Source: a virus (Duplodnaviria; Caudoviricetes). From it: 47,756 nucleotides of DNA. Position 1 is the first letter of the stretch. Each line of letters opens with the position of its first letter. This document shows, one piece after another, positions 3,702-47,756 of this stretch. Under the pieces are notes generated by a model. That model worked only from the letters and a program-made list of their open reading frames with translations. It did no database searches and was not told the DNA's origin. Position numbers and translations under genes: made by a program. The stretch covers positions 1 through 47,756 of IMG/VR virus record IMGVR_UViG_3300024232_000019; one strand, written 5' to 3'.

Positions 3702-3735
3702 GCGTCCCCCGTGGGTCGGTGGTGTTTCGTCCGGC

Positions 3736-4989: not shown

Positions 4990-5213
4990 CGGTTCCTTCC
5001 TGTCAGTAGGTAGCCGACCGTCGTGCCGAGAGCAGCGGCGGTCTTGATGATCGGGTCGCCGGGATTGGGCAGGCTCCTGCCCGTCTCCCAGAACCCGATG
5101 GTGCGGTAGTGGACGCCGACGATGTCCGCGAGCGCCCTCTGCGTGTAGCCGTGCTGCCTGCGGAGCTTGCGCAGCCTCGTCGGGAACCCACGCGGAGATG
5201 GTGTATGCGCCAT
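4986..5213 (-). CDS. XRE-family HTH regulator (Cro-like)
   Basis: LRKLRRQHGYTQRALADIVGVHYRTIGFWETG. Confidence 0.9.
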   Translation of the reverse strand: MAHTPSPRGFPTRLRKLRRQHGYTQRALADIVGVHYRTIGFWETGRSLPNPGDPIIKTAAALGTTVGYLLTGRNR

Positions 5214-5289
5214 TCCTCCATCCTACTGCCAGCACCGGACGGTGCGCTAGCCCCGCTGCCCATCTGTGCTGGGTGTTACGGTCTGCGGA
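5214..5289. promoter_or_regulatory. Putative divergent promoters: leftward -10 TAGGAT (5225-5220) and rightward extended -10 TGtTACGGT (5274-5282)
   Basis: TANNNT hexamers, each 6 nt upstream of an in-frame ATG (5213) or ATC (5289), which fits leaderless transcripts. Confidence 0.45.
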
Positions 5290-5372
5290 TCGCCAGCAGA
5301 CTCACCGCCAAGCTGCTCATCGCCACGCTCGTCGTCGCGGTTCTCGCCGCGCTCGTTCTCGGCGGGAGATAG
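5289..5372 (+). CDS. Possible ~27-aa single-TM peptide (start uncertain)
   Basis: IASRLTAKLLIATLVVAVLAALVLGGR; followed by an 11-bp hairpin at 5418-5446. Confidence 0.35.
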   Translation: MASRLTAKLLIATLVVAVLAALVLGGR

Positions 5373-5791
5373 AGATAGGGTGTCCAGCAGGAGGCAGTCG
5401 GGATTGGCCTACTGTCAGACGGCCCGCGCTGCTAACGCGGGCCGTCGCTCTGAGGCGGTGCTGTTTCTTTCCCTGATAGGGATGCCGGATCGGAGTGCAT
5501 AGCTCTCAGCGTCCGAGGTCTTGAGGCGGATCCCACTCGCTTATTCTGCGAAGCCCCTCTTGGTCTGGAGGGCAGTCGGCGGTGGCCCGCTGGCTCCGCT
5601 CTCGCCACATCCTCCTTCGCCTCACGCCCCTGCCGTGTCCCTTGTAGGGCGATCCTGCCGCTTCGCGGAGCCTCGACTCGACTCTCGCTGGAGATGTAGG
5701 GGGCGGATGCGTTAGGCTTCGTCCAGGTTCTTCTTTATCGTCAAGGGGCGAACCTACCACCTTCTCCTGACAGGTGGGTCTGTAGGTAGAC

Positions 5792-5823
5792 GACAGAGGC
5801 TCCTTCGGGGGCCTCTTCGTTTT
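5792..5823 (+). terminator. Rho-independent terminator, plus strand
   Basis: AGAGGCTCC-TTCG-GGGGCCTCT then TCGTTTT; G-U pair only on the plus strand. Confidence 0.7.
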
Positions 5824-5830
5824 CCCGTGG

Positions 5831-5866
5831 AAACGACGAAAGCCCCCCGCGTGAGCAGGGGGCCTC
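5831..5866 (-). terminator. Rho-independent terminator of the accessory operon
   Basis: Minus strand GAGGCCCCCUGC-UCAC-GCGGGGGGCUUU then CGUCGUUU. Confidence 0.7.
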
Positions 5867-5918
5867 GGTCGGGGGGGAAGGACGGTATTCCTTGCGGGAA
5901 TATCGTCCTTCGGCTAGG

Positions 5919-6328: not shown

Positions 6329-6580
6329 CTAGTTCCGGGCTGCGAGCGCGGCCATGTAAAGCTCATGGCCCCGCTCCGCCTCCGCGATCATCTCCGGGTC
6401 GGAGGTCGTGTACACGGCCTCCTCGCCGTCGTCGGTGATGAAGATGCAGAGCCGTAGCCCGTCGCCGTCGGCGTCGAGCCTCCTCTGTATCTCGCTGTCG
6501 GGGGCCATCCAGGTGTCCCCGACGTTCGTGCCGTAGGGGCCGCGCTTGACCCCCTTGCCGTGGTTGCCGTGCTGATCCAT
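6329..6580 (-). CDS. Hypothetical protein
   Basis: Preceded by the ACCCACGAAAGGAG box. Confidence 0.75.
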   Translation of the reverse strand: MDQHGNHGKGVKRGPYGTNVGDTWMAPDSEIQRRLDADGDGLRLCIFITDDGEEAVYTTSDPEMIAEAERGHELYMAALAARN

Positions 6581-6598
6581 GTTCTCTCCTTTCGTGGG

Positions 6599-7000
6599 TT
6601 ATCGAGTGCGCTTCCGGGCCAGGTACTCCCGGTCACGCTGGTTCGCGCAGAGCCGACACACGACTGTCCCGTTCTTCCTGGCCTTCAGGTTTTCGGGCAG
6701 CGTGATGTCGTGGCTGCGTGAGCAGCGACCGTCCGGCCAGCGGTGCAGCCGGACATGCTCGCGTCGTGTTACCGCGAGCAGGTGCGTCGGGTTGAAGCAG
6801 GTTCGACGCTCGCAGGCGTGATGGACAAGTTCGGCTTCACCAATCCAGATCTCGTAGGCGAGTCGATGAACGAGCCTGAGGCGACCGTCGATCTTGACGT
6901 GTCCGTAGCCATGAGTGTCGAGTGCTCCTGTCCAGATCCAGCACTCACCATCGAGGGTGCGGTTCCGCAGCAAGCGCTTGGCTACCTGTCCCAAATCCAT
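6599..7000 (-). CDS. HNH homing-endonuclease-like protein
   Basis: CWIWTG...GYG...VHRLAYE...HHAC...CFNPTHL and C-terminal CxxxH...CxxC. Confidence 0.85.
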   Translation of the reverse strand: MDLGQVAKRLLRNRTLDGECWIWTGALDTHGYGHVKIDGRLRLVHRLAYEIWIGEAELVHHACERRTCFNPTHLLAVTRREHVRLHRWPDGRCSRSHDITLPENLKARKNGTVVCRLCANQRDREYLARKRTR

Positions 7001-7929: not shown

Positions 7930-8009
7930 GCTTGCCTCCTTCGTGGGTGGACTCCCCTGCTGGGGAGCCTGGAGAGGGGCAGGCGCCGCAAGGCCCGCCC
8001 CCTCCCCTG

Positions 8010-8348
8010 CTAGCGCTTGCGGCCGATGCCGTGCGCCCCGATCTCCACCTCGTAGCTTCCGTCGTCGGTCTTGCGGACGGACGAGAGCGCGTTGAAGTTG
8101 TCGAGCGTCATGTCGAGCGTCACATCGACGCCCTTCTCCTGGCCGCTCACCTTCGCCAGCCACATCGTCCTGACGTGTGGCTCGACCCGCTGACCGGCGA
8201 TGTGTTCGTGCGGCATGTTGAACGTGAGGATGTGGACGCCGTCCGGGTCGAGCGAGTCGAGGAACTCGTCCGGGAGGAGCCGGTTGAAGCCCCGCTTGAT
8301 TGAGTCCCTGCCGATCCGAACGAACTCGTCGGTGTAGGCGATCTTCAT
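8010..8348 (-). CDS. Hypothetical cassette protein
   Basis: Bounded by repeat units. Confidence 0.8.
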   Translation of the reverse strand: MKIAYTDEFVRIGRDSIKRGFNRLLPDEFLDSLDPDGVHILTFNMPHEHIAGQRVEPHVRTMWLAKVSGQEKGVDVTLDMTLDNFNALSSVRKTDDGSYEVEIGAHGIGRKR

Positions 8349-8429
8349 CTCTACCTCCTTCGTGGGTTCACTCCCCTCGCGGGGAGCCTGGAGCGGCAGG
8401 GAGTCCCGAAGGACTCCCCACCTCCCCTG

Positions 8430-9518
8430 CTACTTGACGGTCAGGGCGACCTTCTCCCAGGCCCGGTCGGTCATGTTGGCGACCTGCCAGCCGATGCCCT
8501 CCAGGTCGGCCTGCCGGTCGAAGCTCTCGACCGTCTGGGCCACCGCCGTGATGGCGTTGAGTGCGCCCCACTGGCCCTTGCCGATCCCGTTCGGGTCGGC
8601 GGCCAGCGACAGCATCACGGCCTCCTGCTCCTCGTCGGTGAGGCCGTACTCCGTCGCCAGCACCTTCGTGGCGGCGACGGGCGAGACGACCTGGACCTCC
8701 GAGAGGCCGTCGAGGCGGTCGCAGATCTCCGCGAACGTCGTCTCGGAGCAGGTGTGGCGAAGCGTGTCGCGGGCGGCGAGCCAGAAGGCCACGTCGTCGG
8801 CGGCGAGCGCCTCGTTCGACAGGATGCCCTCGCCCTCACGCTTGCCGACGTGGCGGGCGTTGAGCGCCTTGGTGGTGGTCATGCCGTTGGTGCAGACCAG
8901 GACGAGCATGAAGCCGCTGATCGTCAGCGACCCCGCGCCGATCTCGGAGTTCTTGATCTCGACGCCCCAGCGCACCGTGTCACCGACCTTCTTCACGTCC
9001 CGCTCGATGGCCGGGAACGTGGCCCGGATGTAGAGCTTCGACTCGGTGATCGCGGCCTGGTGGAACTCCACGTCGGTGCCGAGGTTGTCGAACTCCGGCA
9101 GCAGCGTCCGGGCGATCTCCATGTTGTCGAGCCGCCGGAACTTGTCGCTCATCCAGGCGCGGCCGGTCATGGGGCCGTCCGGGTTGGTGAGGCCGCGCAC
9201 CATGCGGGCCTTCGGGTCGGAGTACATCCAGTGGTGCAGGTTGGTCTTGAACAGGTCGGGCGCGTCGTCCCGCATGCGGTCGAAGTAGCGCTTGGGGATG
9301 CCCAGGTCGGTGCTGACCTGCCCGAGGGCGTAGTCGGTCATCACGTACTCGTCCATGCCCTCCAGCCCGTCGAGCAGGAGCCGGATGCTCAAGTCCTCGT
9401 CGCCCGTCTCGGGCGTGACGACGGACATCTTGCGCGTGTCCGCGATCACGTCGTGCTTGCGAGCGTCCTCCGCGACGATCCGCGCAAGAAGCTGCTCGAT
9501 GTTCTCCATCGTTCTCAT
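8430..9518 (-). CDS. DUF932-family phage/plasmid protein
   Basis: NSEIGAGSL...LVCTNGM...RH.G motif. Confidence 0.8.
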   Translation of the reverse strand: MRTMENIEQLLARIVAEDARKHDVIADTRKMSVVTPETGDEDLSIRLLLDGLEGMDEYVMTDYALGQVSTDLGIPKRYFDRMRDDAPDLFKTNLHHWMYSDPKARMVRGLTNPDGPMTGRAWMSDKFRRLDNMEIARTLLPEFDNLGTDVEFHQAAITESKLYIRATFPAIERDVKKVGDTVRWGVEIKNSEIGAGSLTISGFMLVLVCTNGMTTTKALNARHVGKREGEGILSNEALAADDVAFWLAARDTLRHTCSETTFAEICDRLDGLSEVQVVSPVAATKVLATEYGLTDEEQEAVMLSLAADPNGIGKGQWGALNAITAVAQTVESFDRQADLEGIGWQVANMTDRAWEKVALTVK

Positions 9519-9600
9519 GGTCTTCCTCCTTCATGGGTGATCCCAGCGAGTGCTGGGCCTGGAGGGAGCGTACCACCGTGACGGCGATACGCTCCTCCTC

Positions 9601-9897
9601 TCAGTCGTGCTCAAACGTGTCCGTGGTGTCGTAGGTGGTGATCCCGGCCTTCTTCATGTAGCGCTGGATCGCCTGGAAGTCACCGGCCTGCTGTTCGAAC
9701 AACTGCCGGGGCGTCAGCGGCATGGCCGGGTCGTGCGGCATCACGCTGGTGAGCGCCAGCGTCTTCTCGCCCATGCGGGTGAAGACCAGCCCGGAGCGCG
9801 GGACGCCCCAGACGCCGCCGACGCGGAGCGCGGTGAACATCGACCGCGACCACTCGACCCACTGCTCGTCGCTGCCGAGGCCGAAGGCGCCGCTCAC
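9601..9897 (-). CDS. Hypothetical protein (second gene of a two-gene cassette)
   Basis: GTGA overlap with 9894-10106. Confidence 0.7.
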   Translation of the reverse strand: MSGAFGLGSDEQWVEWSRSMFTALRVGGVWGVPRSGLVFTRMGEKTLALTSVMPHDPAMPLTPRQLFEQQAGDFQAIQRYMKKAGITTYDTTDTFEHD

Positions 9898-10106
9898 GAT
9901 GGCGCCTCGGCGTTGAGGATGATCTCGCCGTCCGCCTCGCTGTCGTCGGCGCCGTTCGTGCCGACCACCGCTGCCCCCGTGGGGACGAGCGCGATCTGGA
10001 CGAAGCCGACGAGGAGGTTCTGAGTCTGCTCGCGCACCTCGACCGTGATCGTCTGCTTGTCGTCGCGGCTGACCGTCCAGGCCAGCGTTCCGGTTGCAAT
10101 GCTCAT
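9894..10106 (-). CDS. Hypothetical cassette protein
   Basis: Starts after a repeat-unit RBS. Confidence 0.75.
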   Translation of the reverse strand: MSIATGTLAWTVSRDDKQTITVEVREQTQNLLVGFVQIALVPTGAAVVGTNGADDSEADGEIILNAEAPS

Positions 10107-10178
10107 GCCGTACCTCCTTCGTGGGTGAACCCGGGCGGTGCCCGGGCCTGGAGGGCGGAGCCGAAGCCCCGCCTCCCC

Positions 10179-10352
10179 TTAGCGCTTGCCCTGGTCGAAG
10201 CAGTCGATGCAGAGAAGCTTGCTGCGCCGCTTGCCCCGGCAGGGCTTCATCTCCCCGCAGCCCGCGCAGGCCGTGGTCATGGCCCACTCGCTGCCCCAGG
10301 TCTTCCAGGCGGCGAGCGCCGCCAACTCCAGGGCCGTCAGCTTCTCGGCCAT
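10179..10352 (-). CDS. Small Cys-rich protein
   Basis: TGATG coupling; CAGC...CIDC. Confidence 0.65.
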   Translation of the reverse strand: MAEKLTALELAALAAWKTWGSEWAMTTACAGCGEMKPCRGKRRSKLLCIDCFDQGKR

Positions 10353-10693
10353 CAGTGCCGCCCGTGCTCGTCGGTGGGCGTGGCCTCGACGCTGGAGCGG
10401 GTGTAGCCGACGCTGCCGTTGATCGACCACCCGAACGGGCCGTAGAAGACCGCGAGCAGGATGGCGTAGAGCGGCAGGATGACGAACACCGCCACGCTGT
10501 TGCCGACCATCCAGGTCGTCACGACAGCCGCCGCGTAGGCGACCACCAGGAGAACGAGCGCGGCCACGAACCGGCGGTTGCGATGGCCGGTGGGGTCTTG
10601 ACACTGACGGCAATACCAGCCGCCGGTACAGGCATCGAGACGGCGAAGATTGCCGCACCAGTCGCAGTGTCCACGCTTGTTGATGTTGGACAA
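10352..10693 (-). CDS. Zn-finger plus two-TM membrane protein (TTG start)
   Basis: CDWC...CRQC, two hydrophobic segments, repeat-unit RBS. Confidence 0.7.
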   Translation of the reverse strand: MSNINKRGHCDWCGNLRRLDACTGGWYCRQCQDPTGHRNRRFVAALVLLVVAYAAAVVTTWMVGNSVAVFVILPLYAILLAVFYGPFGWSINGSVGYTRSSVEATPTDEHGRH

Positions 10694-10765
10694 AGTGGTA
10701 CCTCCTTCGTGGGTGTGACCCAGGTTCCCTGGGCCTGGAGGGGGCGCTCGCGAGCGCCCCTCCCC

Positions 10766-10960
10766 TCAGGTGGTCGGTCCCACTTCCTCGATGACGACCG
10801 GGGCGATGTGCGAGCCAAGCTCGGCCAGCATCTCGGCCACCTCGACGGCGATCTGCTCCGGTGTCCAGCCGCGCACGATGCTGCGGGCCACCGTCTTGCC
10901 CCAGAGGCCGTATTCGCCCTGGGCGCCGTAGTCGCGATACTCGATCTCGATCACGGTCAT
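10766..10960 (-). CDS. Hypothetical cassette protein
   Basis: Bounded by repeat units. Confidence 0.8.
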   Translation of the reverse strand: MTVIEIEYRDYGAQGEYGLWGKTVARSIVRGWTPEQIAVEVAEMLAELGSHIAPVVIEEVGPTT

Positions 10961-11030
10961 GGTCTTCCTCCTTCGTGGGTGAACCCTCCCGTCGGGAGGG
11001 CCTGGAGGGGGCGCCTGAGCGCCCTCCCTC

Positions 11031-11213
11031 TTAGGTGTTCAGCGACATCAGGACATCGCTGAGCAGGATGGCCTCGGTGCGGGCCTCGGAGCGCAGCTTC
11101 ACGTCGGTCGAACTGTCCTTCGCCACCGACTCGGCGTTGGACTTGGCGAACTCGACGGCCTTGCGAAGAGCATCGAACTGCGTGGGCGGGAGTGAGATGG
11201 TGATCTTCGTCAT
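11031..11213 (-). CDS. Hypothetical cassette protein (RHH-like N-terminus)
   Basis: KITISLPPTQFDAL; bounded by repeat units. Confidence 0.75.
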   Translation of the reverse strand: MTKITISLPPTQFDALRKAVEFAKSNAESVAKDSSTDVKLRSEARTEAILLSDVLMSLNT

Positions 11214-11280
11214 GGTCTACCTCCTTCGTGGGTGTGACCCTCCAGCGGAGGGCCTGGAGGAGGGGCCGAAGCCCCCTCCC

Positions 11281-11568
11281 CTACGAGCCGACGTTGTAGC
11301 GCCGGACGCGGTTGTCGTAGTAGTCGTTGCGCTTCACGTCGGCGGGGGTCTGCGACCCCTTGCCGCCGCAGCGGAAGCAGGTGCCGGTGAAGCCCTGGAA
11401 GACGCCGTTGACGACGCTGCCACGGCCGTAGTAGACGCCGTCGCCCCGGCAGCCGTCGCAGTCGACGTTGCCCTCGGGCATGTCCTTGACCGGCGCCCAG
11501 GTGGAGGCCGGGTCGTTGGCGGGGTTGGCGACGTGCGCGGCGGTGAAGCTCTCGGGCAGGAAGCTCAT
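11281..11568 (-). CDS. DnaJ-type zinc-finger protein
   Basis: CDGCRGDG...CFRCGGKG. Confidence 0.8.
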   Translation of the reverse strand: MSFLPESFTAAHVANPANDPASTWAPVKDMPEGNVDCDGCRGDGVYYGRGSVVNGVFQGFTGTCFRCGGKGSQTPADVKRNDYYDNRVRRYNVGS

Positions 11569-11745
11569 GGTGATCTCCTTCGTGGGTGTGGGTGAGGTCG
11601 GCCCCAGGGGCAGGGAGGCGGGACGAGTCCGGCGCGGCGCCTGGGCATAGCGCAACAGAGCGTTACCCGTTGGCGGTGCGACCCGGAGCGTCGAACGTGG
11701 CCTCCCTCCCCTGGGTGCCTGGAGGGCCTCGCGGCCCCCCTCCTC

Positions 11746-12165
11746 TTACGCCGTGACCGGCGCCGTGCTGCGCTCGTAGATGCGCTTGCTGTCGTCCAGG
11801 AAGCTGGCGGCGTGGCGCTTCAGGAAGCTCGCACGGCTCTCGATCTTGAAGCTGGCGTTCGTGTACAGGCCGACGTGGGCGGCCACGTCCTCGGCCGTGA
11901 TCGGCCGGGGGTCGCCCTGGCCGGTCATCAGCGAGGCCCCGTGCAGCTTCTCGACCAGGCTGATGCGGGCGTACACCTCGGCGGCGTTCTCCTCGGTGAT
12001 CGTTCCGATGCCGGTCGAGAGCGAGTGCCAGATCAGCGCCGAGGTGGCCGGGTTGAGCACCCTGTCGCCCTTCGTGATGCCCTGCGTGGGCGCGTCCTCG
12101 GTCGCCGTGAGGAAGCACACCTCGGCGCCGTTCTTCACGTTCTTGGTGTCCCAGTTGAGACTCAT
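11746..12165 (-). CDS. Hypothetical cassette protein
   Basis: Bounded by repeat units. Confidence 0.8.
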   Translation of the reverse strand: MSLNWDTKNVKNGAEVCFLTATEDAPTQGITKGDRVLNPATSALIWHSLSTGIGTITEENAAEVYARISLVEKLHGASLMTGQGDPRPITAEDVAAHVGLYTNASFKIESRASFLKRHAASFLDDSKRIYERSTAPVTA

Positions 12166-12239
12166 CTTCGATCCTCCTTCGTGGGTGTGACCCGGGGTGT
12201 CCCCGGGCCTGGAGCGGGGGCCTTCGCGGCCCCCCTCCC

Positions 12240-12467
12240 CTAGCGGCCGAAGCTCGCGGCTCCGACCATCGACTGCGCGGCGGCGACCAGCGCCGCCACG
12301 CTCTCCTCGGGCAGCGCGAGCAGCGTCTGGGCCTGAGGGACGAGCGCGGCGAGCGGAGTGCCCTCGGCGTGCTCGATGATGCGCTGAAGCTCCGCGTGGA
12401 ACGTGCCCTCGGCCTCGTCGTCGCAGACGCTGAAGTCCGGGTACTCGGGGGTGTCGTAGTTGCTCAT
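12240..12467 (-). CDS. Hypothetical acidic cassette protein
   Basis: Bounded by repeat units. Confidence 0.8.
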   Translation of the reverse strand: MSNYDTPEYPDFSVCDDEAEGTFHAELQRIIEHAEGTPLAALVPQAQTLLALPEESVAALVAAAQSMVGAASFGR

Positions 12468-12536
12468 GTCTTCCTCCTTCGTGGGTGGTGTCCCGGGTGA
12501 ATCCCGGGGCCTGGAGGGGCGCCGCAGCGCCCTCCT

Positions 12537-12776
12537 CTAGGTGATGGGGTTGGAGCGCGAGAGGTCGATCCCGACCATCATCGCGTACAGGAAGTCGGCC
12601 ACCTCGCGCTTCGTGCCGACCGTGATCGTGCGGATGCAGGCCGCGCCCTGGTACTCGTCCAGGGCGACGTAGCCGTTGCGCTGCTGGGCCTGGACGTGGC
12701 GCCCCGTGCTCACGATCCGCCGGTTCAGGTTGATGGCCCGCTCGCGGACATCGGTGATGGTGATGCGTTCAGACAT
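12537..12776 (-). CDS. Hypothetical cassette protein
   Basis: Bounded by repeat units. Confidence 0.8.
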   Translation of the reverse strand: MSERITITDVRERAINLNRRIVSTGRHVQAQQRNGYVALDEYQGAACIRTITVGTKREVADFLYAMMVGIDLSRSNPIT

Positions 12777-12833
12777 GGCTTCTCCTTCGTGGGTGGGTAC
12801 TGGAGCGGGGCCGGTGTGGCCCCTCCCCTGGCT

Positions 12834-13037
12834 CTAGGCAGCAGGCGTCTCGATCTTCACGACCTTGACGCTGGTGTAGTCGCTGTACTCGGCCAGCAGC
12901 TTGTCGCGGTAGGCCGCCGCGTCGGTGACGGTCTTGAAGCCGCCGTGCAGTTCAACGAACGGGTTGGCCGAGTGGGCCTCGACGCCGTAGCAGTAGCCGC
13001 CCTGGGGCAGCAGGATGCAAGGGAACTCGCGATGCAT
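12834..13037 (-). CDS. Hypothetical cassette protein
   Basis: Bounded by repeat units. Confidence 0.8.
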   Translation of the reverse strand: MHREFPCILLPQGGYCYGVEAHSANPFVELHGGFKTVTDAAAYRDKLLAEYSDYTSVKVVKIETPAA

Positions 13038-13109
13038 GGTCTGTCTCCTTCGTGGGTGTCGGCCCCTCGGTGTGAGGGGGCCTGGAGGGGCGCGTCGGCG
13101 CCCTCCCGG

Positions 13110-13391
13110 CTAGAGCAGCCCGCTGAGCAGTGGGCCGTCGTAGCTCATCTCGATGTTGCCGAGGTCGATCCAGCGCTGGAGGTTGAGGTCCCAGCGGGAG
13201 AGCTTGGAGTCGCCGTAGTAGGAGTCGCAGGCGAGGCGGTGCGTGGCGGCGCTCAGGGAGCCGCTCGGGGTGGAGATGACCCGCTCGTAGACGCGGATGA
13301 AGTAGGGCGAACCGTCGTGCTTGCTGGCCGTCTCGGGCTGCGCGTTGCGCCAGAGCTTGCTGGCGAAGACGCGGGATTCTGCCTTGGTCAT
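13110..13391 (-). CDS. Hypothetical cassette protein
   Basis: Bounded by repeat units. Confidence 0.8.
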   Translation of the reverse strand: MTKAESRVFASKLWRNAQPETASKHDGSPYFIRVYERVISTPSGSLSAATHRLACDSYYGDSKLSRWDLNLQRWIDLGNIEMSYDGPLLSGLL

Positions 13392-13460
13392 GGTGTGCTC
13401 CTTCGTGGGTGTGTCTCCCTCGACTGAGGGAGCCTGGAGAGGGGGCCGAAGCCCCCCTCC

Positions 13461-13727
13461 TCAGACCGCGTAGGAGTAGCCGACCTGGCTGTTCTCGTCG
13501 CGGACGATGCGCTTGGTGTCGGGGGAGATCCTCAGGTCGAGGATGACGACCTCGATCCGGTCGTAGTTGCGGTCTTCCTTGGCGAGGTCGTGGGCGTAGG
13601 TGTTGGCCGCGTTCTCACCGTTGAAGGGGCCGTGGATCTCGATGCTGCCGAACGGCTTGACGGCCTCGACCGCGTACACGTCGCCCGTGTGCAGGTTGCC
13701 GATGGTGAAGAGTTCCTTGCGCTGCAT
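13461..13727 (-). CDS. Hypothetical cassette protein
   Basis: MQRKELF start after a repeat-unit RBS. Confidence 0.8.
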   Translation of the reverse strand: MQRKELFTIGNLHTGDVYAVEAVKPFGSIEIHGPFNGENAANTYAHDLAKEDRNYDRIEVVILDLRISPDTKRIVRDENSQVGYSYAV

Positions 13728-13798
13728 GGTGCCTCCTTCGTGGGTGAGTCCCCTCGCGTGAGGGGCCTGGAGAAGGGGGCCGAAGCCCCCCTCCTCTT

Positions 13799-14344
13799 CT
13801 ACGCCTCGGTGGCGGTGTTCGTGACGGTGGCGGTGAGGGCGTCGATGCCCTCCTGGCAGGCCCGTGCGGCGGCCTGGGCGACCCGTGCGTTCTCCTGGGC
13901 GGCGAGCGAGGCGGCCTTCGCCTGCTCGGCCGTCTCGGTCAGGCCCTTGATGTGGGCCAGCAGGAAGTCGAGCGCCTCGACGGCGTCCTCGTCGGCCGCG
14001 TTGTCGACCAGGGCCGAGAGGATCTCGACGGCGCGGTCGAACGTCATCGGCTCCTCGATCTTCTCGACCGAGATGCTCACGCTGCTGACGAGCCAGGTGG
14101 TGCCGTTGTAGTCCTCGACCTCCATGCTGTCGTAGACGACATCTCTGGCCGAGTCCTCGGCCGCGTCCTCGTCCTCGGCCTCGATCACGTAGTTGATCTC
14201 GCCGCCGTCGCACTCGACTTCGTTGCTGGAGAAGTACGAGTTGTCGATGAAGTCCTCGGCGCCCTCGGGCGTGTCGAAGCGGATGCCGTCGCACTCGACG
14301 CTGGTCGAGAGCGAGAACTCGATGGTGACCTGGAACTTGCTCAT
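13799..14344 (-). CDS. Highly acidic protein, first gene of the accessory operon
   Basis: About 40 D/E vs about 9 K/R in 181 aa (hand count). Confidence 0.8.
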   Translation of the reverse strand: MSKFQVTIEFSLSTSVECDGIRFDTPEGAEDFIDNSYFSSNEVECDGGEINYVIEAEDEDAAEDSARDVVYDSMEVEDYNGTTWLVSSVSISVEKIEEPMTFDRAVEILSALVDNAADEDAVEALDFLLAHIKGLTETAEQAKAASLAAQENARVAQAAARACQEGIDALTATVTNTATEA

Positions 14345-14390
14345 GGTGTTCCTCCTTCGTGGGTGTGATCGCCAGAGTGGCGACCTGGGG

Positions 14391-14830
14391 ACGGAGGAGA
14401 AGCTCACCGAGGCCCATGCGGCCCCGGCTTCCCCCGCTCTTCGGCCCTGTAACCCGTCGTTGGATCCGCCCCAGGGCCAGACGACGCGATGGGCTGCGTC
14501 GAATCCGGTGTCCCGGTCATCAGAGGCTAAGGCGGACGACGTGTGAAGGAGGAGGTAGTTGCCCGGCTCGCATTGGCCGGGAGGCTCTCATCGACCCCGT
14601 AGGACGCAGCGCCTACCCCGACCTCGGTCGGACGCGGCTCAACACCGCTTCGGCGCCACGCCCCCCGCAGGGGGAGGCTGGCATGTAGGCGGGTACTCGG
14701 CTGGCGGACTTCGCGGGCCTTTCCTCCGGCTTCCCCGGGAGCAGAGCGCCCTTCACGTTGGGCGGTGCTTCCCGGCTGGCAGGGGCCACGTTACCGACAC
14801 GGCGGCACACCGCAAGGGTGAAACGGAGTG
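14391..14830 (-). ncRNA. Putative long structured leader RNA
   Basis: No credible ORF; dense run of hairpins upstream of the first cassette. Confidence 0.4.
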
Positions 14831-28849: not shown

Positions 28850-30171
28850 TGCCATACACAGGACAGACATGGACGGACGGTGTGACGCCGCTGGACTCCG
28901 TGCATATGAGCGCACTGGACGCGGGCGTCGTGGGTGCGGTGGACGTGGACAACCTCGCCGCCGCCGCCAGCCAGATCGTCGCCAACAAGCTGCTGGCCGG
29001 GGATGCCCAGCCCGCCTTCAAGATCCTTGGTGACGGCGCCCATTCCTGGGGGCCGGGAAGCTCGACTGCGCCGGACACGAACCTCTACCGCGCGGCTGCG
29101 AACACGCTCAAGACCGACGGCGCGTTCACGTCGGCGCTCGACGTGATCTCGCAGATCAACGCGACGGGGATGACACGGCTCGGCGGTGCAGGCCCGGGCG
29201 GCGAGGCCGGGATCAAGCTCGGCAACGCGGGCGACACGAACCTCTACCGCAGCGGTGCGCAGATCCTCAAGACCGACACCAACTTCCGCGTCGGCCAGTA
29301 CCTCGACGTGGACTTCGCCGGTGCCGGGTACCAGATCCGCTTCGGCAGCGCCGTGGACACGAACCTCTACCGCTCGCAGGCGGGCGTGCTCAAGACCGAC
29401 GGCCAGTTCTGGGCTAGCACCTACCTCGCTGCCAACAAGGGCACGGCGAATGAGGTTACGGTCGGCCACAACGGCGGCGCGGCGGCGGCAGGTTTTTACT
29501 TCAGCAACACGGGCGATACGAACCTCTACCGCTACGGGGCGAACCAACTCATGACCGACGGCTACCTCTACACGGGGCAGGCCGCGTACTTCATGCGAGG
29601 GTCTGCAACCCAGGTCGGCATCGTGGCCCAGGGCGGTTCGCAGGCCGCTCTCACTTTCGCGGGCGACACGAACCTGTACCGCTCGGCTGCGAACGAACTC
29701 AAGACCGATGGGGCGTTCAAGGCGGGGGGCGAAATCTGGGCTAGGCCGGGGGCTGCTGCCCAGGTCGTGATCGGGTCGAACGTCGGCGGCAACGCGGGCA
29801 TCTACTTCGGCAGCGGGTTCGACACGAACCTTTACCGCTACGCGGGGGCCGTGCTCAAGACCGACGGCCAGTTCTACGTCACTAGCTACGTCGCCGCCGC
29901 TCAGGGGACTGCGGGGCAGGCGACCACGGGAGGGGTAGGCCCGTCAGGAGCGGCCGGTATCCAGCTTGGAGGGGCGGGCGACGTGACGCTCTATCGCAAC
30001 TCGGCCACCGAGTTGAAGTCGAACGTCACCATCACCGCGCCCAACGTGAACGTGCAGGGCACGAACGGCGTCATGCTCTTCGGTGAGGCCGGTGTCCCGA
30101 AGGCCGGGAGCGCAGGCTCGTTCAAGATCACCGTGGACGGGGCCACCTACTACGTCCCCTTCTACCCATGA
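28849..30171 (+). CDS. Tail fibre/spike with DTNLYR repeats
   Basis: Six DTNLYR...L(K/M)TD units plus one degenerate. Confidence 0.8.
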   Translation: MPYTGQTWTDGVTPLDSVHMSALDAGVVGAVDVDNLAAAASQIVANKLLAGDAQPAFKILGDGAHSWGPGSSTAPDTNLYRAAANTLKTDGAFTSALDVISQINATGMTRLGGAGPGGEAGIKLGNAGDTNLYRSGAQILKTDTNFRVGQYLDVDFAGAGYQIRFGSAVDTNLYRSQAGVLKTDGQFWASTYLAANKGTANEVTVGHNGGAAAAGFYFSNTGDTNLYRYGANQLMTDGYLYTGQAAYFMRGSATQVGIVAQGGSQAALTFAGDTNLYRSAANELKTDGAFKAGGEIWARPGAAAQVVIGSNVGGNAGIYFGSGFDTNLYRYAGAVLKTDGQFYVTSYVAAAQGTAGQATTGGVGPSGAAGIQLGGAGDVTLYRNSATELKSNVTITAPNVNVQGTNGVMLFGEAGVPKAGSAGSFKITVDGATYYVPFYP

Positions 30172-37214: not shown

Positions 37215-40200
37215 GTGGCCGCCCCCAGGCTGAACTTCGCAGACGAGGAGGAGAGGAGGAAGGAGGAGGAGCAGCGCAAGCGTGGCTACGTCCCCCCTCC
37301 CCCCCGGAAGCACTGGTCTTTCGATGACCTGGCGGCGGAGGAGAAGAAACGCCGCGCCCTTGCTCCGCCCGACCCGATCCGCGACCCGAAGAAGCACTCG
37401 ATCTTCTCCAACCTCTGGTCGGGGCTGGAGTCGATCCCGGGGGGTGTGAAAGACCAGGAGGAGACGCTTCGCCACGCCGTTGCGAGTGACATCGCCACGG
37501 GCCACGGTGCTTTCGGCCTTGTCTCCACGCCCGCCAGCATGATGGTGCAGGCGAGCAAGTACGTGATCACGGGCGACAAGAAGGACCTGGAGAAGCTGAA
37601 GAAGATGCCCCTGCGGCCGTGGGAGCATGAGCGCAGCGCTCTCGACAAGGCGGCCGAGCCAATCGTCAAGGAGAGCTACGAGACGACGCGGCGGGCGACC
37701 GGCACCCGGGGCCTCAAGAAGTTCGAAGAGATCTGGCACGACAACCCGGTGGCAGCCATCGGCGGGGTGGCGGTGCTCGCGCCCCCGGCCTTCCGCCTCG
37801 CCGGGATCACCAAGATGTCGAAGGCGATCAGGGCTGCCAACGAGGTCCCGCTGAAGGGCGGCGGCACCCGCAGGATGACGAAGACGGAGGCGGTGAAGGC
37901 CGCCACGGTCGAGACGTACTACCCGGGGTCGCTGGACAAGCTGGGTATCCAGGGCAGCCCGTTCACGCCCCGCTTCTCCGGGAGGCGGATCTCGCGCACC
38001 CCGACGGGACGCGCAGCCCAGAAGGCGTTCGACTGGGCGAGCGAGAAGATCGATGAGGGCGTCGGGGTCGGTGAGCGCAGGACGGGGCCGGACACGCCCC
38101 TCTCCAAGACCCGCCGGGAGGCGGCGGGCAAGCGCCGCGCCGACGACCTGAACCGCAGTCGCCTCGTCACGAACGCGATGCGTCACGTCTCTACTTTTGC
38201 CGACTACCTGAACGACGGCCTGGGGGAGCGGCTGGGCACCGCGTTCGGGCGCCGCAAGGAGACGCTGGCTGCCCGGGACGCTGCGGTGGGCGCCGCACTC
38301 CACGCCTCCACGGAGGTCGATCCGGTCGAGGCGGTCCGCCTTGCGGCGGAGGACACGAAGCAGATCCTCCAGTCCGGCAGGCGTGACGCCCACAACGGCG
38401 ACATCGGGGACGTGCCCCCGGACAAGCGTGAGGGCCAGACCGTCTATGTCAGCCACGGCATGGACGAGGAGGGCAACCCGCTCCGCGAGCAGGCCACGGT
38501 GACCGCCGACCACGGCGACCGGGTGACCGTCACCACCCCGGACGGCGGCGAGCGGACGATCCCGCACGCGAGAGCGCACCTGCTCGGCCCGAACGGGGAG
38601 GGGGACATCCCCCTGAACAAGGACGAAATCGCGATGCTGGAGCGTCGCTACGACCACCTGACCTACGCCCACGAAGAGTTGACCTCGGAGCCGCGCCTGG
38701 AAGCGAAGTTCCGTGCGGCCGTCCAGACGATGACCGATCTCGGCCAGATGAACGAGCAGCTTGGCGTCGACTATTTCACCCGGGGACTCGACCCGACCGG
38801 CTCGGAGGCGCTGGGGATCCGGGAGCGGCTCGACGCCCGCCGCAACCAGTTCCTCGGCCGCCTCGGTGGGGAGGGCGCCCAGATCGACTACTACTCGGGC
38901 CTCTGGGGCCAGCTTCAGAACGCGATGCAGAAGTCGGGCAAGTACACGGACGAGCAGCAGCTTGTGTTCATGTCGGTGCTCGACCGGCAGGCCCGGCTCT
39001 GGGCGAACGAGGTGGAGGGCCGCGACCCGGCCGACTACCTCGCCTCCCCGGAGGGGGCGAACCTGGGCGGGATCGACTTCTCCAACTCGGCCGACCTGGA
39101 GGCGACCGCCAACCGTTTCTTCCAGACCGAGGGCGAGCGCTTCTCTCTGGTGAAGCGCCTCACCACCGCCGTGATCAAGGCGGATCCGCAGGTGGGCGAT
39201 CTCGTCTCGACCCCGAAGGGAATGGGCTGGGTCAAGAACATCACCGACGTGTCGGAGCCGGACGGGCGGGTGGTGCGGATCGAGATGGCGGAGGGCGGGC
39301 ACGTCACCCGGGACTTCAACATCGGGGAGGTGCGCGTCTCCGAGTTCCCCTGGACGGGGCACCCCCAGCCGGACGACTACGTGATCACCCCCGACGGCCC
39401 GGGCCGGGTGGAGAGGACGGTGGAGGGGCCGGGGCCGGACTTCGACACCTTTTACGAGGTCACGCTGTTCGATGAGGTGAACGGCATGTTCGTGGACGGG
39501 GAGCGCAGGACCTTCGCGCCCGGCCAGGTGCAGCGGGTCGAGGATCCCCGCGACCTGGACAGCGAGGTCTTCCATCTCGCCTCCCAGCAGGCGCTCGGCA
39601 CTCCCGGCTTCCCGAAGAAGGCGACCTCGGAGCAGTACCTCAAGGAGTTGAGCAAGCAGGGCGTGAAGTCGGACGAGTTCTTCTGGATGGGCCTGTCACG
39701 CCGCCCGATCATGGAAGACCAGTTGCGGGCTGCGGAGGCCGAGGTGAAGGCGGTGGAGAAGAGGCTCGCGGCCGACCCCGGCCACGACGCCGTCTACGGC
39801 GCCGAGGAGCGCGACAGAGCGCTGCTGGAGGTTCAGCGGTGGCAGGCGATCCTGGCGGACTACACCGTCAACCCCGACCCGAATTTCATCCTGGACGCCA
39901 ACTGGACGACCGGCAGCTTCCCTGTCGCCGCCCTGGAGGATGCGGTCAAGAGCAGTTCCAACTTCCTCAACGTGAAGGAGACGCTCTACTCCTCGGAGGC
40001 GGGGAGCTACCAGTGGCGCGACAAGTGGGGGCCGAACCGTGACAGCGGCGACACCGACGGGGGCCTGATCATCCGCGAACCGCACTCCCGCGAGCCGTAC
40101 TACGAACTCGTCATGGCCCTGCCCGAGAGTGACCTCTACACCCACGGCCACTACACCCGCCACGGCAACGAGTCGCACCTGCTGCACATCCGCTTCCATG

Positions 40201-43200
40201 AGATCACCGACCTGGAGGGGAACAAGGCGCTCCTGATCGACGAGCTTCAGTCCGACTGGAACAACGTGGGGCGTTCGCATGGCTGGAAGGGACTGCTCTC
40301 CCCCCTGGACGAGCGCACCCTGCGCCATCTGCGCGACCGGGAGCGGCGAATCCTGGCAATCCGGCAGGCGTACCTCGACAGGCTCGGGGTCAACCACCAT
40401 CAGATCTTCGACTACTACGACAACGCGATGCGCGAAGCGCAGAGCCAGTTGAACAACGAGATCGACCAGCGCAACCAGGCCCGGTTCGATGCCAGGGAGG
40501 CGATGGGCCTCGACGTAGGTCCCACCCCGGACGACCCGAACGAGCCGCTCCTTTACGTCCACAGCAACAACGACGTTCCGGCGATCCGGCAGCGGGCGGA
40601 CGAGAACCACGTCGGTGATGCGACCTACCAGTCGATGATGGAGGCGCGGGACAAGGTGCTCTCCTACAACGAGCGGGCGACCGCTGCCCGCTCGGCGGCG
40701 GACTCCATCGAGGGAAGCTCCCACGGGACGAACCGTGGCCCGCTCGTCATGGGGGACGGGCCGAAGTACCTCGGCATGAAGCGGCTGATTCGCTGGGCTG
40801 CCGATCACGGGCAGACCCGGATCATCTGGGTGCGCGGCCATGAGCAGGGGGTGCGTTACAGCCTCTTCAATGATTTGCCGATCCAGGAGCGCCACGGGGC
40901 TAGCGGGGCAGGGGATCCCGAAGACCACGGCAACACCTTCTACTACCCCTACAACAACGAGATCATCGACGCGGGCGGTTACTACCAGGACATCGGCGGC
41001 AACACGGGCCTGTCCGAGGGCGTGTTGCAGGAGATGCGCAACGTCCCGCCGATGGAGGTGCGCTGGGACAACCCCGACCTCGATGAGGACTTCACGGGGG
41101 AGCAGTACATCCTGATCCCCCGGTCGAGCCTGAGGGAGAACCCGGGCCTCTCGGGGCAGACGATGCTCGGGCAGGAGGACGTTCTGCCTCCGCCCTACTC
41201 CAGCTACGGCGCCCCCCACCAGTTCCCCCGCTACGGCAAGGTGATCAGGGACGACGGCGAGACGATGCTGGTGAAGCCGCTCGACCCGGAATGGGATCCG
41301 GCCCGCCTCAGGGTGGACTTCCGGGGGGACACGGGCGAGAGCGACTACTCGCACTTCGACATCAACATCGTCAACCGCGCCGGGGTGTCGATCTTCAACG
41401 ACTCGGTCGACGGGCAGATCGGGCGCGACCTGGACAGCGTCCTTGCTGCGGTGGGGGACTCCTGGGAGCGGCAGATCCGCTACCGCTACATGGAGGGTGG
41501 GGATGCCGTCCCGGCCAACGTGGCCGCGAAGAATGCGGAGGTCGCCAAGATGTACGACACCCTGGATGCGTTGCGCGGGACGCCGCATGTGGGCAGCGAG
41601 TTCGAGCGCATGATCGACAACGCCGACCACGCGCTTGACGAGTACGCCTGGGACGATTACGTCGCTGAGCACGCGAGCGAATACGGCGACAGGGAGGCCG
41701 AGGGCGACTTCCGGGAGATCCGCGACCATGAAAGTCGCGGGCACCGCCGCATCCGCGAGCTACAGGCCGACCTGGCACGGGTGAAGGAGAAGCAGGCGCT
41801 CGACCGCGAGCGCGGCGTCGAGACGCAGGACTACGCCGCCCAGATCGAGGCGACTGAACGCGAGATCGCCTCTGCGAAGGAGTACCTCCCGAACAAGGGG
41901 CACTCCTACGGCTACGACGTGATGCTGCCGAAGATCGCGAAGGAGCTTCTGAAGCCCTACAAGAACGAGGCCGACATCAGTCCAGTCGAGTTGCAGCAGG
42001 AGGTCTACACCGGGCGCTACTCCTCGGAGACGCACGGGGTCATCACCAACGAGGGGCCGATGCACGGCTGGGTGATGAAGCTGCCGAAGAAGATGATCGA
42101 GGACGCGAAGGACACCCAGGGCCTCTTCCAGCGTGGCAACGACATCGTCAAGGGCGCCTCCACCTGGGTGGGCGGCCCGGAGGGGAAGCGCTTCATCGCA
42201 CTCACCGAGCACGCCGACTTCTCCACCCTGATGCACGAGTTCATCGGCCACGCCACCGAGGAGATGAAGCGCCGCTACCCGGAGCTGTGGGAGACGGTGG
42301 AGCGCGACATGGGCAAGCCGCTGGAGGACTGGAAGGTGGCCGACCATGAGCGGTTCGCCAAGTGGGTGGAGCGCTACTGGATGGAGGGCAAGGCCCCGTC
42401 GCCGGAACTGCACACGGTGATGAAGATGATCAAGGAGTGGATGAAGGGCGTGTACGCCTCGATCACCCAGCTTGGGCGCCCGATGCCGGACTCCACCAGG
42501 ATCCTGCTGAACCGCCACCTCGGCCAGGGCATCTCGGCCCGCCCCGGCGCCCGCGCCTACGTGCCGCACGTCTCCCAGTTCGACACGATGATGGACACCG
42601 CCCCGGGCGGCACCCGGTTGGCTGCCGGGGGCAACGTCGTCGGCGTCCCCCAGGTGGACAGGCGCAACTTCGGGGCGAGGCGCAACCGGGGGATCCTCTG
42701 GCAGTCCGGCGAGCTTGCCCTCTCGGCCCGCCCGATCATCGACCAGTACTTCCGGCGCACGAAGTTCATGGAGACGGAGGCGCTGCGGCAGGAGTTGTTC
42801 GATGAGGGCCACCCGCTGCCGAAGAACGGCAGGGCGCCCGAGGGGGCGTGGCTTGTGCGCAACCCACAGGCCGCCCCGGAGCGGCTGAGCGCCCGCAACA
42901 AGTCGAGGCTCTCCGAGGAGGACTTCAGCCGCCTGACCGGGGAGGGCGACACCCCGGAGGAGTTCGTCACGAAGATGGAGGAGATCCGCAAGGACCACTA
43001 CGCCGCCCCGGGCGAGCATCCCGAGTGGGCGAACGATCTGGAGAACGTGCGCTGGGTGGAGGCCGGGAAGATCAATCAGCGGATCCAGAACGTGTTCCCG
43101 ACCGCCCCTCGCGGCAGGGTGGCGGCGAGCGCAGGCTCCCTCAACACGATGGCGCGGCTGACCGGGATCTACCTGCGGCCCCTGCACTACCTCGTCGGCA

Positions 43201-45685: not shown

Positions 45686-46219
45686 CTACGACTTGCTGGT
45701 GGTCACCTTCTTCTGCGAGCGCTGCTTCGGCTTCGCCTCGATGTCGCCCTCCTCCTTGTCGGAGGGAGGCAGCGAGTTGTCCACGAAGTCGTCCCAGCCG
45801 TGGCTGGTGCGCTCGGGCTTGCCGAGGATCTCGACGGGCGCGGCGCAGTGCGTGGCGTAGGCCATCGCCGGGGCCTGCACGTTCGTCAGTTCGGCGTAGC
45901 CGTCCTGCTCCTTGCCGAACGCAGGCTCGATCCCGGGGAACTGATGCGCGACGGTCGGCCACTCCGCGTCGAACTGCTCCTTGTTCACCATCACCGGGTT
46001 CCGCGCCTTCGCCTCGACGGAGGGATCCTCGGGCTGGCCCTCCGCTTCCTTGCGGGCGGCGTCCTCGGCCTCCTCCTTCGCCTTGCGCTGCTCCTCCAAT
46101 TCCTCCTCGCTGAGCGGGCGCGGCTCGGGCGAGGTGGCGGGCGGGCCGGGGTCGGGAACCAACTCCGACTCATCGACCTTCTCGACCTCGGCCTCCTCGA
46201 CCTTCTCTTCGTCCGACAT
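45686..46219 (-). CDS. Acidic hypothetical protein
   Basis: GAAGGAG RBS; E-rich N-terminus. Confidence 0.7.
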   Translation of the reverse strand: MSDEEKVEEAEVEKVDESELVPDPGPPATSPEPRPLSEEELEEQRKAKEEAEDAARKEAEGQPEDPSVEAKARNPVMVNKEQFDAEWPTVAHQFPGIEPAFGKEQDGYAELTNVQAPAMAYATHCAAPVEILGKPERTSHGWDDFVDNSLPPSDKEEGDIEAKPKQRSQKKVTTSKS

Positions 46220-46324
46220 GTCTCTCCTTCCGGGAGCGGGACTACCACCCGATGATAAGGGGGTGGGGTGACGAGCGCCCCCTACCCCTTCCTTCGGTTA
46301 TCCATCCCGTGCTAGGCTCTTCCC

Positions 46325-46385
46325 AGATTTCTTTCGTGGGTGAAAGAAACGAAACGGCCTCACCTCGGTGGGGCCGTTTCTCGTT
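46325..46385 (+). ncRNA. Candidate antisense sRNA targeting the CACCCACGAAGGAG boxes
   Basis: TGcTAGGCT at 46310-46318; hairpin UUUCUUUC-GUGGGU-GAAAGAAA; terminator hairpin 46351-46380. Confidence 0.55.
46351..46380. terminator. Probably bidirectional terminator
   Basis: GAAACGGCCTCAC-CTCG-GTGGGGCCGTTTC with U-rich runs on both strands; overlaps the VRR-NUC stop. Confidence 0.7.
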
Positions 46386-46851
46386 CCGGGAGCGCCCCGA
46401 AGATGCGCGTGGCCTGCACCTCGTCGCCGCTGCACGCCTTGAGCAGGCGCCGGTACCGCTCCGGGTCGTCCTCCACGTCCCGGGGCGGGAACACGACCGA
46501 GGGCAGGGCGCCCAGGATCGTGTCGATGCTGCCGTCGAACCACTGGGCTGGCCGCCAGCAGTACCACTCGCCCCCGGCGTCGAGGATCCAGTCCCGCCAC
46601 ATCTTCTGCTCGGCGCTCAGGTACTTGCCCTGCGCCTTCAACTCCACGAACACGATCCGCTCGCGCACCAGGGTGAGGTCGGGGAAGCCCTTCCCGTCCC
46701 CCTGGGTGGCGGTGGCCCAGCCCGAGCCGCGAGCGGTCTGCCCGGGCAGCGGGTGCATCACCTTCCAGCGAAGCTGCTGCGCCCGCTCGATCACGCCCCG
46801 CTGGAGGTCGGCCTCGCTGAGCTTCGCCCCCGGCTCCCGCCTGATCTTCAC
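46360..46851 (-). CDS. VRR-NUC domain nuclease
   Basis: SEADLQ...GFPDL...FVELK...LSAEQKMW. Confidence 0.9.
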   Translation of the reverse strand: MKIRREPGAKLSEADLQRGVIERAQQLRWKVMHPLPGQTARGSGWATATQGDGKGFPDLTLVRERIVFVELKAQGKYLSAEQKMWRDWILDAGGEWYCWRPAQWFDGSIDTILGALPSVVFPPRDVEDDPERYRRLLKACSGDEVQATRIFGALPERETAPPR

Positions 46852-47015
46852 GTCGGCTTCGGCGTGGACGTATTGACGATCAGGGTGGTTTCGAAGTAGA
46901 CGCGACAGCAGACGGTGGAGCAGAAGGCGTCACCCCCGTCGCGGGGAAGCAGCGGCACCTTCTTCCCGCAGACGACGCAGAGGCCGTCGGCGCGGGGCCG
47001 AGGCTCACGCTTCAT
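46848..47015 (-). CDS. YacG-like zinc-finger protein
   Basis: CVVCGK...FCSTVC. Confidence 0.55.
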   Translation of the reverse strand: MKREPRPRADGLCVVCGKKVPLLPRDGGDAFCSTVCCRVYFETTLIVNTSTPKPT

Positions 47016-47340
47016 CGTCATCGAAGCGAACGAACGACTCCGCCTCCTCGTCAAGCAGCATCGCCGCAACCTGCTTGCGCTGGCGGAGGCTGAGCGCCAT
47101 CACCGCATTGATGGAGGCGGTGAGCATGATCTCCTCCCCGAGCGCCTCCATCGCGTAGTGAAGATCCCGGTTTGCGCAGGAGGCGATGACGCGGGTAGAG
47201 CGGTGCTGGTGCATCACCTCGCAGAACGGGTTGTCGCACTGCTTCTCCGGGAAGTGGATGAGGATGAACGAGTCCGCCTCTTTCAGCACGTCGAGGGCAT
47301 GGGCCTGTTGTTGATCATGTTCAGCGGGGAAGGGATGCAC
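47005..47340 (-). CDS. Hypothetical protein
   Basis: GTG start after a CACCCACTGAAAGGAG box variant. Confidence 0.7.
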   Translation of the reverse strand: MHPFPAEHDQQQAHALDVLKEADSFILIHFPEKQCDNPFCEVMHQHRSTRVIASCANRDLHYAMEALGEEIMLTASINAVMALSLRQRKQVAAMLLDEEAESFVRFDDDEA

Positions 47341-47369
47341 GATTCTCCTTTCAGTGGGTGGTCACTTCG

Positions 47370-47546
47370 TCAAGCCTCGACCACTTCGAAATCCTGCGGA
47401 CGATGCTGCTGTCCGATCCAGTTGTAGGCGTCGGAGAGCCAGTGGAAGGTGCGCGGCCCCCGGCGTCTGTCGTCGGGGACGAGTAGGCCGCTGACGACGT
47501 TGCGGATGTGGAACCGCTTACTGGGATTCGAATCCGGAAGGCTCAC
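47370..47546 (-). CDS. Hypothetical 58-aa protein
   Basis: GTGA coupling; MSLPDSNPSKRFHIRN. Confidence 0.6.
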   Translation of the reverse strand: MSLPDSNPSKRFHIRNVVSGLLVPDDRRRGPRTFHWLSDAYNWIGQQHRPQDFEVVEA

Positions 47547-47656
47547 GGCTTCGGACTCCCGCACCAGCAGACGCCATTCACGATGTACCACCAGCAGCGG
47601 CGACACATATGGATCGTTTCCGGCCGCTTTCTGGGATTCGAATCCGACAGCGTCAT
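47543..47656 (-). CDS. 37-aa Cys-rich protein, absent from the allele at the window start
   Basis: MTLSDSNPRKRPETIHMCRRCWWYIVNGVCWCGSPKP; coupled at both ends. Confidence 0.55.
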   Translation of the reverse strand: MTLSDSNPRKRPETIHMCRRCWWYIVNGVCWCGSPKP

Positions 47657-47756
47657 CCCTTCGCCTCCTCCGGGATCTCGGTGCGGTTGACAAGCACGAA
47701 CGCCCCGGCGCGAGCGAGCGCGTGGTAGCGGGTCAGCGCCCCGCCGCCGTCAAGCT

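Follow-up and report, generated by a model that had tools for sequence, protein, structure and literature searches.

Multi-target bacterial sRNAs with C/U-rich loops complementary to the Shine–Dalgarno (SD) sequence use one seed against many ribosome-binding sites, in variable host leaders. Phage antisense RNAs, as treated in review, have one or a few phage mRNAs as their targets and mostly concern lysogeny (PMC12197685). P1 and P7 encode the C4 RNA, which works in trans, through its loops, against an mRNA of the phage itself and occludes the ribosome-binding site (RBS). It has three stem-loops and two recognition loops, is released from a precursor by RNase P and targets the ant mRNA in the control of lysogeny (PMC5320573, PMC12197685). 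Silencing on a broader scale is described for T4, in which RegA represses about 30 mRNAs and RegA and RegB silence early mRNAs at their initiation regions; both are proteins, which recognise GGAG or loose A/U-rich sites (PMC3014915). In cluster K mycobacteriophages and cluster EF Microbacterium phages, the start-associated repeat (SAS) is an asymmetric sequence of 13–14 nt at the RBS of non-structural genes, and the ESAS is a promoter with 17-bp DNA inverted repeats upstream of the SAS; papers of 2011 to 2025 call the role of the SAS unknown (PMC3203893, PMC7302621, PMC11373665, PMC12699233). A single SAS in opposite orientation is reported in four K1 phages (PMC3203893).

The stretch of DNA analysed here, referred to as the window, is a complete virus record of 47,756 nt with a GC content of 68%. 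A preliminary description of its sequence had proposed that it encodes a plus-strand small RNA (sRNA) antisense to a standard box in the leaders of many of its genes (Table 1). Like P1/P7 C4, such an RNA is predicted to block the RBS by loop-initiated pairing. Unlike C4, the locus has two hairpins and one antisense loop in each of two phages, its own predicted promoter and 15–18 sites; a search of Rfam with the window at E values up to 1 returned no match to C4 and no family at the sRNA locus (one Pab19 match elsewhere is below gathering), and contigs L140 and L187 of a relative gave no match. Family scans, covering 69 ORFs in PHROGs and 68 + 76 in Pfam, detected no antirepressor, integrase, ParA/B partition, recombinase or polymerase family. 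In purpose the proposed RNA is comparable to T4 RegA/RegB, one phage factor acting on many mRNAs, except that an RNA with a dedicated 14-nt site would replace the protein. It differs from multi-target bacterial sRNAs in having its seed upstream of the SD and a site that comes as standard with the gene cassette. The box is, as a kind, a SAS-type repeat, being asymmetric, present in one orientation at the RBS, conserved beyond the SD and associated with non-structural genes. However, the cluster K consensus GGGATAGGAGCCC is not matched within 2 mismatches and has only the SD core in common with CACCCACGAAGGAG; the upstream elements here are a pair of RNA hairpins, unlike those of ESAS; and, unlike the orphan SAS copy, the partner locus has a predicted promoter and terminator of its own.

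Table 1. Positions of the sRNA locus, its neighbours and its predicted targets in the window.
Feature	Position	Strand	Details
Extended -10 promoter-like element TGcTAGGCT, TGCTAGGCT	46310..46318	+	One of only 4 TGnTAnnnT sites (whole window, both strands)
Predicted sRNA (seed hairpin and terminator-like hairpin)	46325..46385	+	61 nt; fold z = -5.85
Hairpin 1, perfect 8-bp A/U stem	46328..46349	+	Closes loop GUGGGU, 46336-46341
Hairpin 2, 13-bp GC stem	46351..46380		VRR-NUC stop codon (minus strand) inside; U-rich tails on both strands
VRR-NUC nuclease gene	46360..46851	-	Converges on sRNA; PF08774, E 8.6e-5, 23.0 bits vs cut-off 23.8; phrog_93
Acidic gene, 177 aa, of no known family	45686..46219	-	Homologue search: 15 proteins including itself
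-10-like TATCAT of acidic gene	46252..46257	-	Divergent from predicted sRNA promoter
Cassette array with 15 leader boxes	7936..14365	-	Box scan, 14 nt each
Array box starts	7936, 8355, 9526, 10114, 10702, 10968, 11221, 11575	-	14 nt each
Array box starts, continued	12174, 12474, 12782, 13045, 13398, 13733, 14352	-	14 nt each
Conserved non-coding leader of array	14370..14780	-	Two-genome alignment and fold; relative L140 7300-7740
Outlier box	6586..6599	-	Start of ORF 6329-6580; duplex -22.9, net -14.1
Outlier, ACCCAC seed	3705..3716	-	Precedes PD-(D/E)XK exonuclease gene; net -3.8 (weak)
Third outlier box, T-insertion form	47345..47360	-	Start of ORF 47005-47340; net -5.6 (weak)

The elements from which the locus had been recognised, namely the extended -10, the A at 46325, the GTGGGT loop and the 13-bp hairpin, are all present at the positions claimed. 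The A at 46325 follows the extended -10 after a 6-nt spacer; no recognisable -35 accompanies that element, and a consensus promoter scan found nothing at the locus. The 5′ arm and the loop of hairpin 1 are antisense to the box and to the SD. GTGGGT is closed by a stem of at least 5 bp in only 1 of its 30 occurrences on the plus strand of the window, which is this locus, and 8-bp stems close 0.3% of arbitrary hexamers. Hairpin 2 is probably a bidirectional terminator, flagged by a simple terminator scan on the minus strand only. Its U–G pair, advanced earlier as a plus-strand feature, does form on that strand and gives the more stable fold (-25.4 vs -19.5 kcal/mol on the minus strand), but the argument is weaker than it had seemed, since in both phages the base facing this U on the complementary strand is the A in the stop codon of VRR-NUC. 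A small plus-strand ORF beginning at 46340 was discarded for lack of conservation: its counterpart in the relative is only 6 codons long. Reads from 4 of 18 DNA sequencing runs assembled into one contig spanning 46214-46407 that shows 0 differences from the window and is free of variants. An imperfect G/C palindrome (46260-46289) separates the divergent -10 elements; in this region the relative has about 100 extra nucleotides with hairpins.

The proposed targets form a coherent family. The box CACCCACGAAGGAG, CACCCA(C/T)GAAGGAG, is matched 17 times in the window with up to 2 mismatches, against a mean of 0.83 in shuffled sequence; of these matches, 15 are in array leaders, one is at the sRNA locus and one falls inside the portal gene. 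All 15 array boxes lie on one strand, with a start codon 4–8 nt downstream. A typical leader runs from the upstream stop through a GGAG..CUCC hairpin, AGG and a second hairpin to the box and the start codon, and the hairpins, variable in sequence, carry UNCG- or GNRA-type loops on the mRNA strand. A CTCCAG-linked leader pattern fits 13 of the 15, and in 5 of those 13 the mRNA strand carries a C-UUCG-G loop, so that the cassette leaders look like RNA structures; this leader of two hairpins joined by AGG is itself a structured repeat of undescribed appearance. Departures from the box within the window are all U for C and remain pairable as G–U, as had been claimed for the target variants. The earlier tally of 16 array leaders and two outliers is corrected to 15 and three, the array-wide occurrence of the box being confirmed and two of the outliers being weak. 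The outlier seeds precede the starts at 6580, 3701 and 47340. Only the seed before the exonuclease gene is kept in the relative, with different flanks; the outliers at 6586..6599 and 47345..47360 have no counterpart among the relative's boxes. Scattered repeat copies are also seen at 47345 and 5765-5779.

Predicted pairing separates these leaders from other starts of the window. The 14-nt duplex between the sRNA segment and the box forms as claimed, with an energy of -24.1, and sRNA–array box duplexes extend over 14–16 bp. Among 87 SD-bearing candidate starts, spurious ORFs included, the 18 that carry the ACCCAC seed have a mean predicted net binding of -11.3 kcal/mol. For the 69 starts without the seed, among them those of the capsid and other virion genes, the mean is -1.0 kcal/mol (best -6.1). 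In duplex energy the locus ranks first of 46,834 windows outside leaders (-24.8 vs -24.6 for the portal-gene match); as this lead amounts to only 0.2 kcal/mol, the argument draws on architecture and conservation instead of energy.

Conservation was assessed in a relative found through two routes: a cassette pattern gave one 21-kb contig (among 21 stretches), and the acidic gene gave contig L187. Contigs L140, L135 and L187 were joined, with an overlap of 8,889 nt and 0 mismatches. Orthologous proteins are 50–88% identical between the two phages (61% for VRR-NUC), and the relative's array has 9 boxes; of the array ORFs of the window that were tested, it contains only 4. This largely different gene content suggests that cassettes are exchanged through their leaders. 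The sRNA orthologue (L187 9680-9755) likewise folds into two hairpins (z -6.21). Its TGcTAGTCT, one of 3 TGnTAnnnT sites of the relative, lies 18 nt from the loop compared with 17 nt in the window, the difference being one extra A, and this spacing is kept although the distance to the acidic gene is 193 nt instead of 91 nt. The loop region GTGGGTGAA is unchanged, and letters of the first stem are replaced with pairing kept. In the orientation of the window's plus strand, the relative's hairpin 2 has 12 bp, a U–G pair and a GCAA loop, and in both phages hairpin 2 is about 5–6 kcal/mol stabler in this orientation. The relative's 5′ arm still pairs over the SD, with energies of -25.6 to -30.4 in the 4 array leaders tested. 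By sequence comparison of these two genomes, the locus has the character of a promoter-to-terminator non-coding unit with conserved structure.

The core idea of an sRNA antisense to a standard leader box is therefore upheld in part, on the strength of a locus, promoter element, loop, structure and matching insertion that recur in the relative. Array-bearing relatives lacking a complementary locus, which by the preliminary description would speak against the idea, were not encountered: the only relative found to span the locus has both. On co-variation of box and loop the observations point both ways. The extra A in the relative's sRNA matches a T inserted in its first and second leaders, the first being orthologous to the window's first, but 7 of its 9 boxes lack the T, and there the extra A would bulge; this compensatory insertion is a single event in a comparison of two genomes. 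Cognate pairing is better than cross pairing in only 9 of 15 leaders of the window and 6 of 9 of the relative. The suggestion that the site is a relic box in the leader of gene 45686-46219 does not hold: because the acidic gene has its own conserved -10, the locus is not a relic leader. This TATCAT, 32 nt from the start codon in the window and 36 nt in the relative, sits between the box copy and the gene start, and the locus itself is kept in the relative. The acidic gene's leader contains no box (net sRNA binding -4.6), and the gene had no PHROG, Pfam or usable Atlas match.

Searches for further relatives gave the following picture. The box alone yielded scattered single matches among those listed from viral_contigs, and two sRNA patterns gave 42 and 13 matches with no matching hairpin context, which were read as chance. 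Alignments of VRR-NUC and of the acidic gene retrieved nothing from viral_contigs or genome_contigs; that of the exonuclease retrieved the same relative again and 6 loci of 28–34% identity, and a metagenome scan returned 2 loci, one being the window's own contig. Homologues are also encoded on longer contigs of 38.8, 29.6, 48.7 and 68.6 kb. The box is absent from the distant relatives G002 and G003, with capsid identities of 38–39%. G003 has an array of its own at 37990-41050 (L202/L203), in which a hairpin and the motif GGTCGTAGTC precede ribosome-binding sites or lie close to them; the search for an antisense partner gave no clear candidate.

As judged from these comparisons, the locus is very likely a selected element tied to the box, and a plus-strand RNA is likely made from it. 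That this RNA represses through pairing is fairly likely, and it is reasonably probable that a plus-strand sRNA of 60–70 nt pairs with box and SD and represses translation in lytic growth, with a role in early shut-off. The box could instead be the site of an RNA-binding repressor or nuclease in the manner of T4 RegA/RegB, in which case the locus would be a minus-strand 3′-UTR hairpin presenting ACCCAC as a decoy or for autoregulation. In each phage the minus strand does close ACCCAC with a stem 1–2 bp longer than that of the plus strand (window, 9 and 8 bp; relative, 8 and 6 bp); the relative's outer stem contains a G–U pair on the minus strand only and extends past the predicted plus-strand start, the inverted repeat reaching about 5 bp upstream of it; the locus directly follows the VRR-NUC stop; and T4 provides the precedent of early mRNAs shut off by proteins at initiation regions (PMC3014915). 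Left unexplained by a protein site with its decoy, however, are the plus-strand extended -10 at fixed spacing, the plus-orientation GCAA loop and the SD complementarity kept beyond the loop. In the window, moreover, the 5′ arm of the decoy hairpin doubles as the minus-strand U tract, and a minus-strand transcript ending in it would stop inside hairpin 1, before loop closure; no RegA/RegB family was detected among the ORFs scanned in PHROGs and Pfam. A protein site appears unlikely. The claim itself could be sound in mechanism and wrong in purpose, with sRNA and pairing as proposed serving carrier or lysogenic maintenance, superinfection exclusion, or the tuning of cassette mRNA processing or decay. 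P1 C4 acts in immunity (PMC5320573), an HTH_3 gene (Pfam) is present at 4986-5213, the structured cassette leaders could serve as processing sites, and the sRNAs of the two phages pair with each other's leaders. This same cross-pairing argues against heteroimmunity of the P1/P7 kind, and the scanned ORFs include no integrase, ParA/B or recombinase family. The immunity role put forward earlier is left unsupported by the PHROGs and Pfam scans, with no integrase or partition family among the 69 and 68 + 76 ORFs, and since no lysogeny gene was found, immunity or carriage is placed among the rivals; a purpose of this kind is likewise rated unlikely.

Two further readings dispense with antisense control. 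The locus could be a decayed or displaced copy of a cassette leader, beside an ordinary bidirectional terminator and without regulation: its DNA orientation is that of the array boxes, repeat families scatter copies (here at 47345 and 5765-5779), and a chance site matches its duplex energy. Such a copy is already strained by the relative: in both phages a long stem, built of different letters, closes the hexamer (background 0.3–1.6%), and promoter spacing is kept despite about 100 nt inserted alongside. The acidic gene's own -10 between box and start, and the absence of a start codon after the copy, also speak against decay, which we regard as very improbable. Finally, the boxes may be no more than a strong signal for translation initiation, or a protein site at the DNA level, with the hairpin pair serving another purpose. 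The box does include a strong SD, and the SAS have been interpreted as signals for initiation (PMC3203893), but high-output virion genes lack the box, the seed before the exonuclease gene is kept while its flanks change, and an exact antisense loop is conserved; little credence is given to an initiation signal.

Under the preferred reading of pairing-based repression, host RNA polymerase would start at 46325 from the extended -10 and terminate at hairpin 2. The GUGGGU loop would pair first with the ACCCAC just 3′ of each cassette hairpin, and pairing would spread through the weak 5′ arm across GAAGGAG(G) to give 14–16 bp. Exclusion of the 30S subunit would then silence the first gene of each cassette, and perhaps coupled genes too. 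Build-up of the RNA would end an early, host-directed programme in a phage without recognisable lysogeny genes. Acquisition of a cassette leader would by itself bring a new gene into the regulon, with about 16–18 genes repressed together.

In the literature consulted, which covered few subscription papers, no description was encountered of a phage sRNA whose dedicated site recurs across many leaders of the same phage. The present case is set apart by a seed that falls outside the SD, by a unit that stands alone from promoter to terminator, and by conservation in two genomes with a matching insertion. An RNA repressor with 15–18 dedicated sites in interchangeable cassettes would, if true, be a distinct design for the timing of phage expression and would explain the co-regulation of a fast-changing gene array; the 61-nt RNA and its 14-nt site would amount to a compact gene-silencing part for high-GC bacteria. 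We give an even chance to the broader proposition that one RNA of 60–70 nt is the master repressor of a plug-in regulon and that the start-associated repeats of actinobacterial phages are, in some groups, operators for such RNAs.

That proposition offers a testable answer to the role of the SAS, as some cluster K phages growing on M. smegmatis carry a comparable anti-SAS loop. In Anaya (JF704106 59870-59882; L206 34871-34883), the opposite-orientation SAS lies in the gap between genes 96 and 97 and forms the loop CCUCCUAUCC on the rightward strand. Late transcription of Adephagia starts between genes 92 and 93 (PMC11373665), and the Anaya gap, matched by position only, appears to be the same one. 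In Anaya, Pixie and ZoeJ, the anti-SAS scan covered only the 25 kb that run up to the right end. Twelve K phages were checked, namely 10 picked from the 40 listed of 182 matches plus Anaya and Pixie: in the gap examined, 4 have the exact anti-SAS loop, 3 an inexact C/U-rich one and 5 none. A general rule that SAS repeats are antisense targets was dropped, given the absence of the loop from the examined gap in 5 of 12; the parallel between SAS and anti-SAS is partial and would serve as a lead, not as a general rule.

The array is preceded by a long non-coding leader with conserved islands and compensatory stems in the two genomes. Its anti-SD run at 14544-14560, conserved as CCUCCUCCUUC, has the SD of the first gene as its predicted partner, a pairing that would leave ACCCAC open. 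The fold of the whole leader has a z of only -0.59, and Rfam gave no match for it. It is possibly a cis switch or an antitermination RNA. A hammerhead reading of its early part, which contains CUGAUGA, was rejected because the second core motif, GAAA, is absent after the stem in both phages.

As for the phage itself, genes for terminase, SU10-type portal, capsid, adaptor, tail-collar, endolysin and M23 proteins (PHROGs/Pfam) occupy the plus strand, and small non-structural genes the minus strand. No close cultured phage was found, the best terminase match being 33%. The metagenomes that contain the window's sequence are from soil; those listed comprise 18 DNA sequencing runs and no RNA run, which carries no information on expression. 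GC content and TANNNT-type -10 elements suggest an actinobacterial host, while one homologue is labelled as coming from a Gemmataceae MAG. A second extended -10-like site at 5274-5282 (+), kept in the relative, is divergent from the HTH_3 gene and points into the 5300-5900 gap. The window's ends (1-140 and 47500-47756) overlap, with a rearranged short duplication around the palindrome GGATTCGAATCC in 3 copies, which points to a circular assembly, possibly with an end artefact. Within a 443-aa late ORF, a repeat of 14 nt or more occurs four times at 29077-29530 (+), where the sequence departs from that of the relative L120.
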